Sequence record: NC_009514.1
Reading direction: 5' to 3' (one strand)
Source of the DNA: Enterobacteria phage cdtI
DNA: 47,021 nucleotides
Position numbers: made by a program. Below are positions 33,001-36,000 of this stretch, in pieces; the stretch's first letter is position 1, and each line of letters starts with the position of its first letter.

Positions 33001-36000
33001 GTGTCACCATTAGTATCAAAGCCCACAAGGTAGTCGGCCCAGTCTTCAATCCATTCTGCCAGTGATTTCTGGGAGTTACGCTCGCCATTAACAGACAACA
33101 GAGCAGAGAACGGTGCTGTCTTTTTCAGTTTGAGAGTGGCGGTGTTATCTGCGTGACCTGGTTCATCAATAGTACCCAGGTTAAGCACACTGACGGCACG
33201 CATATTATCAGCATCGATAAAGCAGCGGGTGCCTTCATCTGCAAGATCTTTAGAATAACGGGTAAAGTCATCGATGCTGGCAGTGGAAAGCGCACCACGG
33301 AAACGGAAACGATTTAAATTAAATTTTTCCAGATCATGAATGCGGAAATTCTCAGGCAATGCCACAGCATCGGCACCAATCTTACTGATAATTTCATTAA
33401 CACCCTGAGCAGAAATAAGGGCATGGATTTGATTAATTGCGGTTGCGTCTAAGTTTTGAGACATAATAAGTCCTCACTATATTAAAGATATTCAGTGATA
33501 AGATGAATAATTAGTTTATTAACAACGATATTAACGACCTGCTGCGCGGAGTTTTCCGTCAGGTTCACCGGCAAGAGTCAGTAATTGTCCCTGGTCTTCC
33601 TGCAGAATAGTCAGGCGACCACCGCGATTGACATACATCGGCGTTTCGGTGGTGTCTTCTTCGGAAATTTTCCCGCGGTTAGTCGGGCGAACATATGAGA
33701 GTTTGTGTTTGATTTTCACTCGGTTCTCATCAAACGGTTCGATTTCCAGGTTGAGCGAGACCTTACCTTTGGTTTTCGTGTTCATCACACCGGAAGCGAC
33801 TTCACTGAGAACAGCGCCGATTTTGGTTTCAAATACGCCGCCGTCCAGCTCCCCGATAAATGCCTGCACATCAGTACTGCGTTCGCTAGCCATTTTGCTG
33901 CTCCTCATCATATCGACCCTGCAAGGTCGGTTGGTTTCTCCACAAAACAGAGAAGAACACCTGCGGTGGCAGCCGCCCGGATGGATTGGGTTATGAGCCC
34001 GTCGTCCGGCGATGCTCTTCTCTGTTTTGTAAAAAGAGCGGTACCAGCCGGAAGCAAGTGTACAAACTGGTACCGCCAAAGCAGTGGCTGTTGTGGTGGG
34101 GTTGTCACTCAGGCGTATGGTCAACCTGACAATCCGGTGTCCTCAACGGGGAAAGAGTAACCCCGCCATACTTACCGCCGCGCCATTTCGCGGATTACCA
34201 CAACGCTGAGAGCACTTAGCCAGTTACGGCACCACACTTTGTCGCGGCTCCATAAATGCCCTCATCGTTGCACCCTGGTCTCTTCCCAGGCGTCAAACCG
34301 AATCGCCACGCTGGTTAGGCGTCTTATCAGCATCATCATTGACTTGCACATTCCGGCTACCTGGTTTGTTTGCCCGAGCAAGGAGTGGATTGTCCCCTTT
34401 AACGTCCCCAGACCGCTAACGACGCATGTGCCATACGCCGTGTTACAACCAAATTTTGTTTAATCTTGCCTGTGGCATGTTTCTTTTAGATACATTATGT
34501 ATCTCAAGGGTACATTGTCAAGTATAAAAAAACCTGCCGAAGCAGGTTATAAATATTGATTAGGCCTTTATTTGGTATCTTCTTGGTTTTCCTGAGAAAA
34601 TTACTGTACCAATTATAGAGCAATTACCGTTAATCTTAATGTAAGGCTCAGGCCAGTTTGGGTTTAATGCTTTGAGATAACGCTGTGTTCCATCTTCTAT
34701 CAATCGCTTGAAGGTGGTTTCGCCTGTATCGTGCATCAATGCAATAACGTCGTCACCGTGGCAGGCAGGGACTTCGGGATCAACAAAAATCATGTCTCCC
34801 GGGCGGTACTCATCAATCATTGAATCACCAATCACCCGCAAGATATAAGTCATTTCGCCACAGGGTACAGGGCAGGGATAAGTTTCTGCTGTGCTCAAAT
34901 CAACCTCAGAATAGCCAACTTCTTTCCATGCTCCGGCCTGTACCCATGATATGACAGGGACTAACGTTATTTGTTTGTTAGTAATTGAAACATCAGGTTT
35001 TTTTGTGATGTTTGTTGTCTGGTGTTCTTGATCAAGCCATCCGACAGGCAGGTCGAAACATTTTTCGATGTGCCGTGCCATGCTGTCACCGATATTTTTA
35101 GTAGCACCATCTCCCATAAACCTGCTGGTCTGGGTTGGCTCGCGATCAATCATGGTGGCAAAGGAAGAATTCCCGCCAACACCATCTCTCAGTTTTCTGG
35201 CGTTAGACCGCCGGATGTCATGGACTGTTTTCATAACGAAATTAAAACCTTTGTACCGATAGGGTACAAGTATCTTGAAGGTTCATCTCAATCATGTAAT
35301 ATGTATATCGGAGGTACATATTGTATGAAAGCGTATTGGGACTCTTTAACCAAAGAACAGCAGGGCGAGTTGGCCGGAAAAGTTGGCTCAACACCAGGCT
35401 ACTTACGGCTGGTTTTCAATGGTTATAAAAAAGCCAGTTTTGTGCTGGCTAAAAAACTTGAGCAATGCACGTCAGGTGCAATTACGAAATCTGACTTAAG
35501 ACCGGATATCTATCCGAAAGATTAACAGAACACCTTCAATTTTTAACCACAGAACGATGAGGCTAACCGTGGGTAAGCATCACTGGAAAGTAGAAAAACA
35601 GCCTGAGTGGTACGTGAAAGCTGTCAGAAAAACTATCGCGGCGCTGCCGGGGGGTTACGCTGAAGCTGCTGAGTGGCTGGATGTAACAGAGAACGCTTTA
35701 TTCAACCGCCTTCGTGCAGATGGCGATCAGATTTTCCCGCTGGGATGGGCAATGATTTTACAGCGCGCGGCTGGCACTCACTACATTGCGGATGCTGTCG
35801 CACAGTCTGCTGGTGGGGTGTTTGTATCGCTTCCTGAAATTGAGGAAGTAGAGAACGCCGATATAAACCAGCGCCTGCTGGAAGTCATCGAACAGATCGG
35901 GAGTTACTCAAAGCAGATTCGTTCGGCAATCGAAGATGGGGTAGTGGAGCCACACGAGCAGACAGCAATTAATGATGAGTTGTATCTGTCAATTTCGAAG

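Follow-up and report, generated by a model that had tools for sequence, protein, structure and literature searches.

Modular untranslated RNA structures and a DicF-like element in the early-left leader of Enterobacteria phage cdtI

The early-left leader and its coding capacity

The DNA analysed here (hereafter the window) is a stretch of 47,021 nucleotides (nt) from Enterobacteria phage cdtI (NC_009514.1), a lambdoid temperate phage. Between the promoter of its early-left operon, PL, and the first leftward gene lies a leader made of a series of five conserved RNA modules on the minus strand: a structured RNA that we term E1, modules M2 and M3, a DicF-like small RNA and a hairpin with a stem of 25 base pairs (bp). 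A preliminary description of this DNA had noted a structured untranslated leader where an N gene would be expected, and had regarded it as more than a simple gap. This holds: the leader is not translated, it is conserved and structured, and it contains regulatory RNA that has gone unannotated. Its structures are conserved, and it is homologous to the dicF region of Qin-type prophages. We consider it probable, by analogy, that the leader is a modular untranslated RNA of the PL operon, with a 3′ half arranged like the ydfC-dicF-dicB segment of Qin and a dicBF-like mechanism.

PL is placed on the minus strand at 34521-34494, where a -35 hexamer TTGACA and a -10 hexamer CATAAT (34494-34499) are separated by a spacer of 16 nt. 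This sequence agrees with the consensus at 11 of 12 positions and is the top sigma-70 match within the 7 kilobases (kb) from 30500 to 37500. A promoter is annotated at the same position in Escherichia phage Ayreon (99% identical), and similarity to heteroimmune phages begins just downstream, near 34460. We take this sequence to be PL, with transcription probably starting near 34487. Given such a start, and because similarity to K-12 yfdP begins only 25 nt before the ATG at 33893, the untranslated PL leader is about 590 nt long. The surrounding immunity region comprises cI (34560-35234, minus strand), the cI terminator (34531-34548), which stands directly before PL on the minus strand, and, on the plus strand, cro (ending at 35525) and a CII-like gene (35557-36120).

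By BLAST, the leader region is 98-99% identical to Ayreon, to a set of Stx2c-converting phages and to phage 2H10, and it shares partial identity with mEp460. Distant matches reveal a mosaic, in which separate sub-blocks match separate phages. The 651-nt leader folds with a free energy of -243 kcal/mol (z = -3.3). It had been described as GC-rich, and its GC content is raised, but only modestly (53.5% versus 49.1% for the window).

The leader ends, on the minus strand, with a small predicted hairpin (33914-33929), a Shine-Dalgarno sequence GAGGAG (33901-33906) and the ATG (33891-33893) of the first leftward gene (33531-33893), whose YfdP-like product matches phrog_204 over residues 1-119. Together with YfdP, the six early-left genes encode DUF2303/YfdQ, a YfdR phosphatase, members of phrog_583 and phrog_60, and an excisionase, as assigned by PHROG and Pfam. 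No N-like protein was found among these six, in agreement with the preliminary description, and no arginine-rich N protein is encoded just downstream of PL, where the first gene is YfdP-like and the other five are accounted for. In K-12, the leader is wholly absent from CPS-53.

Open reading frames (ORFs) of 39-151 amino acids (aa) do occur in several frames of the leader, and some are annotated in Ayreon and mEp460. The antisense ORF 33705-34160 (plus strand) matches phrog_3651 at 3e-98, and the yfdP frame is open to an in-frame TTG at 34124. The region might thus encode one or more small proteins, whether a cryptic N-like factor, the annotated hypothetical ORFs or a longer YfdP initiated at this TTG. 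The ORF list of the preliminary description was incomplete, as six-frame translation adds 34262-34381 (minus strand), 33986-34129 and 34084-34209 (both plus strand) as well as the TTG extension, but its judgement that none is credible holds. Pfam searches of the leader ORFs return no match, their PHROG matches are confined to families of ‘unknown function’ made from earlier ORF calls, and none of the ORFs is arginine-rich like N. E1 varies from 148 to 180 nt among 39 representatives, with lengths in all three residues modulo 3, and the terminator loop of divergent homologs carries a 1-nt indel. Leader substitutions track base-pairing rather than codons, and the annotation pipeline PGAP calls no gene in the leader in thousands of E. 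coli RefSeq genomes. There is no conserved reading frame between PL and the ATG at 33893; the Pfam and PGAP results, the spread of lengths, the indel and the pairing-type changes together rule out the leader as coding sequence, and we regard a protein product, including one begun upstream of the point where yfdP similarity starts, as extremely unlikely. Nor is the leader a lost N gene; it holds conserved non-coding RNA modules.

The E1 RNA and its distribution

E1, the most unusual part of the leader, lies upstream of the hairpins that had been flagged earlier. It occupies 173 nt of the minus strand (34271-34443), where covariance model R1 scores 139.8 bits (E = 1e-39). R1 detects no second copy in the window, and none follows PR. 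An alignment of 35 representatives reveals four helices, together with a pseudoknot in which the P4 loop (CACC or AACC) pairs with GGUG or GGUU further downstream. In the window, these elements correspond to P1 (34420-34440), P2 (34409-34416 with 34356-34363), a variable hairpin listed between P2 and P4, P4 (34308-34322, loop CUAACCA), the pseudoknot of the P4 loop with 34296-34299, and P5 (34274-34290, loop GAAGAGA). The 32 proposed pairs are formed in 97.3% of alignment cells, compared with 24-44% after the partners are slid. Compensatory change, which the preliminary description had proposed to seek by aligning homologous phages, is present in 12 of these pairs, and none of 500 shuffles matches the observed values. 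A C-G to A-U change backs the pseudoknot of the P4 loop; another possible pseudoknot, which would join GCAC of the P1 loop to GUGC of the core, is invariant and hence gives no covariation signal.

The core is a near-invariant 19-mer (34343-34361, minus strand; GGUAGCCGGAAUGUGCAAG), part of which forms the 3′ strand of P2. Among 149 E1 copies fetched by an independent 5′ anchor, 143 carry it exactly, five have one substitution and one has a deletion. The helices that flank it vary. The RfaH ops element was considered and rejected by inspection, since GGUAGC alone is shared and conservation is lacking at the counterpart of ops C3.

A search of the leader with the covariance models of Rfam had also been proposed, and it gave no match at gathering or permissive thresholds: Rfam 15 contains nothing that matches E1, even at E ≤ 10 over 33800-34600, and gathering-threshold scans of the window and 15 related loci return only C4 and isrK, both elsewhere. 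Literature text searches, including searches for the 19-mer, yielded no description of E1, and keyword queries brought up only a paper on LLS phages that speculates on put. E1 is a well-supported structured RNA of an undescribed family that PGAP leaves unannotated. The two Rfam matches in the window both lie inside an ORF of 382 aa of Ash/Rha type (36117-37265, plus strand), with isrK at 36477-36553 (60 bits) and C4 antisense RNA at 36578-36665 (68 bits). This is the arrangement of the P1-type immI region (36477-36665, plus strand), and a terminator-like hairpin lies within the ORF at 36531-36548. The 5′ third of this ORF call is probably non-coding.

Of 5426 complete E. coli genomes, 1833 (34%) carry E1, at 1913 chromosomal and 554 plasmid places, all of them unannotated. 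Distant BLAST matches to the 5′ portion of the leader fall in non-coding DNA of P1, P7, D6 and epsilon15-like phages; the carriers of E1 include lambdoid, P1-like and epsilon15-like phages. A search with the invariant 19-mer returned more than 120 viral contigs, and a scan of one genome per species returned 24 loci, of which 22 are from Enterobacterales and two from metagenome bins (labelled Bacillota and Oscillospiraceae), one of the latter lacking a full E1 by model R1. E1 follows PL in the window phage and in mEp390. In phages of the phiV10 type, which are epsilon15-like, it stands just ahead of tRNA-Arg. In P1 it is located directly after tRNA-Ile and before ban (AF234172, 71010-71194), with no second copy within the first 50 kb. 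The leader of the P1 ban operon (a dicF-like region, three tRNAs, tci genes and ban) resembles that of the window in being part of a repressor-controlled early operon with a dicF-like region and E1. However, the P1 operon has the dicF-like region first and E1 last, coding genes are interspersed, and what comes after E1 is ban, not a terminator.

The twelve compensatory pairs, the core kept in 96% of copies and the persistence of E1 in three unrelated phage types argue for selection on the E1 RNA itself. These data, together with its presence in about a third of complete E. coli genomes, make it very unlikely that the leader is mostly a scar of mosaic recombination, in which boundary stems and terminators served as exchange points and E1 has no function. 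Such a scar would fit the visible mosaicism of the leader, the unrelated inserts held by conserved stems and a recombinant deletion in one locus (L166) that fuses E1 directly to a terminator loop. E1 is instead a portable, autonomous RNA module that moves between the non-coding arrays of lambdoid, P1-like and epsilon15-like phages.

Its surroundings are correspondingly diverse. A promoter lies within 90 nt upstream of E1 in only about 11-15 of 40 distinct upstream contexts; in most, other RNA modules precede it. On its 3′ side E1 meets M2, the ribosome-binding site of an ORF, boxA or ban. By a manual count from a per-context listing, a strong terminator-like hairpin, and often two, separates E1 from the first ORF in about 50 of 59 distinct contexts.

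The preliminary description had offered an antitermination element of the HK022 put type as one explanation for the leader. The put RNAs suppress termination in cis without a phage protein, and mutations in the zinc-binding domain of the RNA polymerase beta′ subunit block this activity (PMC9378689). Like E1, HK022 putL and putR and the putL-like element of HK639 are found just past an early promoter, before terminators, in lambdoid phages that lack N, and they are RNAs with conserved unpaired nucleotides between helices. However, a put RNA is about 70 nt long and has two stems with the conserved features GGCGGGYUCAGG...CGGCAAU, which are absent from the window. E1, at 150-180 nt, is more than twice this length, has four helices and at least one supported pseudoknot, is single-copy here and is also found inside operons away from promoters. 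Model R3, built from seven putL-type sequences, recovers HK022 putR (40 bits, E = 1e-9) and finds no window match at E ≤ 10; with filters off over 33500-36200, its best score is 8 bits. A BLAST search with HK639 putL finds nothing relevant in the window, and R1 does not match the put regions of HK022 or HK639. With BLAST and covariance models failing in both directions, the leader is not a put-family RNA.

E1 could nevertheless resemble put in action as a cis-acting processive antiterminator of separate origin, which would replace N by staying bound to RNA polymerase past the DicF-like and later terminators. We judge this possible but doubtful. In its favour, the early-left operon has no N-like gene, and the paper on LLS phages points to the lack of N in phages with such an operon and raises a put-like RNA as an explanation (PMC12315714). 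E1 begins 45 nt past the presumed PL start and is 6-54 nt from a promoter in at least 11 contexts, strong terminator-like hairpins stand between E1 and the first ORF in most contexts, and RNA polymerase is the sort of conserved host target for which a single-stranded core that hardly varies would be suited. Moreover, leaders of the ST64B type exchange E1 for another 5′ domain and keep the downstream modules, as nut and put alternate in lambdoid phages. Several observations argue otherwise. Besides lacking any relation to put in sequence or structure, E1 is not promoter-proximal in many arrays, and no terminator separates it from ban in P1. Qin-type operons pass a homologous terminator to reach dicB without E1. 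A perfect boxA follows E1 in two contexts, and a self-sufficient antiterminator would need none; the early-left operon of the window is only about 3 kb long. The broader proposal that E1 is the first of a class of phage RNAs that target host RNA polymerase or an elongation factor, and so make long untranslated arrays and early operons resistant to termination, seems to us about as doubtful. If it were true, E1 would join put as a processive antiterminator that consists of RNA only, would have evolved independently of it and would be far more widespread, across Enterobacterales. We favour E1 as an autonomous array module that binds a conserved host partner.

Lambda nutL (boxA-boxB), which acts with N, is also placed after PL. 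The P5 loop GAAGAGA and P4 loop CUAACCA of E1 are reminiscent of the boxB loops of lambda nutL (GAAGA) and phage 21 (CUAACC), and UGCUCU within the 3′ strand of M2 resembles boxA. The window phage differs from lambda in having no N-like protein, and the P4 loop of E1 is engaged in a supported pseudoknot. We did not adopt the string in M2 as a boxA, because it is paired and variable (UGCGCUUCC in many copies). A strict boxA (YGCTCTTWA) occurs in one of 143 sequences downstream of E1.

Other E1 loci have features of their own. Two unrelated loci, L086 (downstream of E1 at about 3178-3340) and L161 (E1 at 2108-2266, minus strand), have a small hairpin behind E1 and, next to it, a perfect boxA (GCUCUUUAACAA or GCUCUUUAAUAA), an order that is also that of rrn leaders and could tie E1 to Nus-factor antitermination. 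Loci L039 (about 7300-8100) and L074 (about 5000-5800) carry, on both sides of E1, runs of tandem small hairpins with loops YUNACCA and GGAAAGAC, which resemble P4 and P5 and look like repeated binding sites; their GGA-in-loop motif recalls CsrA sites. The leader of ST64B (L156), 815 nt long, retains the downstream modules, but where E1 would stand it has another 5′ domain (1930-2225), about 300 nt in length, that carries a terminator of its own. A motif in this domain, GUAGCC-A-GUGCAAGC, echoes the E1 core, but the domain was rejected as a distant E1 since it gives no significant match to R1, even with filters off.

Modules M2 and M3 and the DicF-like terminator

Downstream of E1, M2 (34200-34270, minus strand) forms a long hairpin (CAACGAUGAGGGCA...UGCUCUCAGCGUUG) whose base is conserved and whose top varies (-33.9 kcal/mol, z = -4.5). 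Elsewhere, the same stem base holds inserts that are unrelated and 40-250 nt long, with covariation in the stem. An M2-type stem is also found in Qin, just upstream of M3. More widely, M2-type stems (CAAC...AGAGCA / UGCUCU...GUUG) occur in many loci, for example L010, L074, L097 and L101, and module boundaries alternate between GUUG(UGG) and (CCA)CAAC. Some of the inserts contain T-arm-like hairpins (GGUUCGAUUCC) or adjoin real tRNA-Arg genes; ARAGORN detects no tRNA or tmRNA in the window.

M3 (34082-34204, minus strand) is closed by GUUGUGGU...ACCACAAC, and its folding energy is unremarkable when considered alone (z = -0.6). Its homolog in Qin-type prophages is the segment that immediately precedes dicF, with 89.4% identity over 123 nt to K-12 positions 1,649,251-1,649,373, which end 8 nt before the annotated dicF. 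BLAST also identifies M3 homologs in E. coli W, in PPompW prophages and in an Actinobacillus phage. The E. coli W homolog lies between ydfC and dicB, and 26 nt past the end of its BLAST match is a DicF recognized by Rfam, followed by a sub-threshold STnc100-like structure. In the Actinobacillus phage, pPE4 (L172, 2110-2269), which has a Pasteurellaceae host, two tandem DicF-like terminator modules follow the M3 homolog; their presence indicates that the M3/DicF type of array extends beyond Enterobacterales.

The next module (34031-34100, minus strand) consists of a single-stranded 5′ part, a terminator stem and a U-tract. One of the hairpins in the preliminary description, a 10-bp stem, belongs to this module: it exists, but as 12 pairs including two G-U pairs, and its arms are at 34065-34076 and 34038-34049, 1-2 nt from the positions first given (-22.5 kcal/mol, z = -2.7). 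On the transcribed minus strand this stem is directly followed by UCUUUUU (34031-34037), and therefore it has the form of an intrinsic terminator. A compensatory A-U to G-C change in the stem is present in locus L089. By sequence, the hairpin would terminate a DicF-like small RNA whose 5′ part is unlike that of DicF.

A four-way alignment of the window, Qin, ST64B and pPE4 reveals the same module order, with the window element in the slot of DicF: an M2-type stem ending in ...GUUGUGG, then M3 or an STnc100-like structure, then the terminator RNA, further structure and the first gene. The window element and DicF have in common UUUGGCGGUAYCAGUUU and CCGCYCUUUUU. Model R2, for which 14 terminator modules from E1-type leaders and no DicF sequence were used, scores the window element at 51.8 bits. 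In E. coli W it recovers the true DicF, at 30.9 bits and with an E-value (5.6e-4 in 106 kb) that, like all those from R2, is rough owing to a short calibration. R2 also matches the copies in ST64B, mEp390 and pPE4, and gives nothing spurious in the 106 kb.

Just after the terminator is the second hairpin of the preliminary description (33937-34035, minus strand). Its perfect 15-bp stem (33942-33956/34016-34030) is present as described and forms the core of a 25-bp helix (-50.9 kcal/mol, z = -6.9), and none of 200 shuffles folds as well. The helix is kept, with structure-preserving changes, in lineages of about 82% identity and in ST64B. Because its 5′ arm contains the terminator U-tract, the duplex would form only on read-through transcripts, on which it may be a substrate for RNase III. 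The two hairpins had been put forward as a candidate antiterminator, and the opposite now appears to hold: one has the features of an intrinsic terminator, and the other is the long duplex that follows it.

The long duplex takes the position that, between dicF and dicB, belongs to an STnc100-like structure, which is also where the dicBF operon has its region processed by RNase III. The module related to STnc100 (RF02076; GGUGAAUGCG...GGAGGCACCNGGCACC) is found beside a DicF-type terminator in ST64B, the Qin prophage of E. coli W and pPE4, at 34-39 bits, below the Rfam gathering score of 47. The window has no such match, and M3 and the 25-bp hairpin occupy those slots.

The E1 core and this terminator raise a further possibility. 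In the window lineage, there is complementarity between the core (AGCCGGAA...GCAAG) and the loop and 3′ arm of the terminator (CUUGC-UUCCGGCU); a duplex between 34343-34361 and 34044-34058 would have 8 + 5 bp (-23.5 kcal/mol, p about 0.012 versus shuffles). Given the complex pseudoknotted fold of E1, its invariant core and the GUUG/CAAC boundary strands through which adjoining modules might adopt alternative closures, E1 might act like a riboswitch, sensing a ligand or factor and tuning downstream termination by alternative pairing with M2 or the terminator. However, 13 of 14 other terminator types lack complementarity to the core (p > 0.1), so the pairing is not conserved, and one such case in 15 tests is not significant. 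The sequence after E1 is also too varied to constitute a fixed expression platform. We find a sensor of this kind quite unlikely, and we did not adopt the core-terminator pairing, which is confined to the window lineage, as an antiterminator.

Elsewhere in the window, the integrase gene (27218-28435, plus strand) is on the strand opposite to the excisionase gene (30809-31003, minus strand), with a 729-aa ORF of unassigned function (28512-30701, plus strand) between them, which places int outside the PL operon. To the right, a replication-protein-like ORF (37483-38367, plus strand) contains a direct repeat that encodes GDSLGGSANNSLSGAANSPGSAG twice and may represent origin iterons within the gene.

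A proposed dicBF-like mechanism for the leader

Our interpretation of the leader follows from its likeness to the Qin ydfABC-dicF-dicB operon (RF00039). Both belong to an early-left operon of a lambdoid phage or prophage under the immunity repressor, and both place, between an M3-type segment and the next gene, an element that ends in a Rho-independent terminator, followed by further structure. They differ in that no ORFs precede the window element, where E1 stands in place of ydfABC, and in that the post-terminator structure of the window is a plain 25-bp duplex. Two DicF forms are described in a review: a 53-nt form arises by early Rho-independent termination and RNase E trimming, and a 72-nt form by RNase III cleavage of the full-length operon RNA (PMC9438474). 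The anatomy of the window, a terminator and then a 25-bp duplex, is consistent with this route of biogenesis. On sequence grounds, the 3′ half of the leader is a further member of the DicF kind in a known operon type.

By analogy with dicBF, loss of the repressor would allow transcripts from PL to run across E1, M2 and M3. Some transcripts would end at the intrinsic terminator, by partial termination at the U-tract, and 5′ trimming of these by RNase E would release a DicF-like small RNA, probably dependent on Hfq. On transcripts that read through, the U-tract would be drawn into the 25-bp hairpin, which RNase III would cut, and the mRNA would express yfdP, yfdQ, yfdR, two genes of unknown function and xis. 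For E1, the likeliest mode of action is that its invariant 19-nt core contacts and binds a partner conserved in the host.

A number of points weigh against this reading. The Rfam DicF model (48-bit threshold), which scores the true DicF of E. coli W at 76.7 bits, misses the window element in a 101-nt stretch even at E ≤ 10. The 5′ part and loop of the window RNA are unrelated to those of DicF. In a crude test, in which DicF itself reaches only p = 0.14, the predicted duplex of the window RNA with ftsZ from -60 to +45 is no better than shuffles (p = 0.72). The 25-bp hairpin has only its position in common with the STnc100-like structure of Qin and is not homologous to it, and terminator-like hairpins in about 50 of 59 E1 contexts suit antitermination as well as they suit a cargo role. 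Finally, we infer the transcription start, the efficiency of termination and the processing. With a different 5′ part, the targets of the DicF-like RNA probably differ from those of DicF.

E1 is a common yet uncatalogued RNA, carried by 34% of complete E. coli genomes and by textbook phages such as P1, and found neither in Rfam 15 nor in RefSeq annotation. Many lambdoid phages of the SfV, ST64B, mEp460 and Stx2c type lack an N gene, and the leader is the place to look for how they achieve early-left expression. This question can now be addressed with defined parts, namely E1, the DicF-like terminator RNA and a probable RNase III site. It appears that DicF itself belongs to a larger family of terminator small RNAs, whose 5′ parts differ. 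Members of this family are found in modular arrays alongside tRNAs and tRNA-like pieces, which bears on how the host is reprogrammed at prophage induction, including induction of Shiga-toxin phages.

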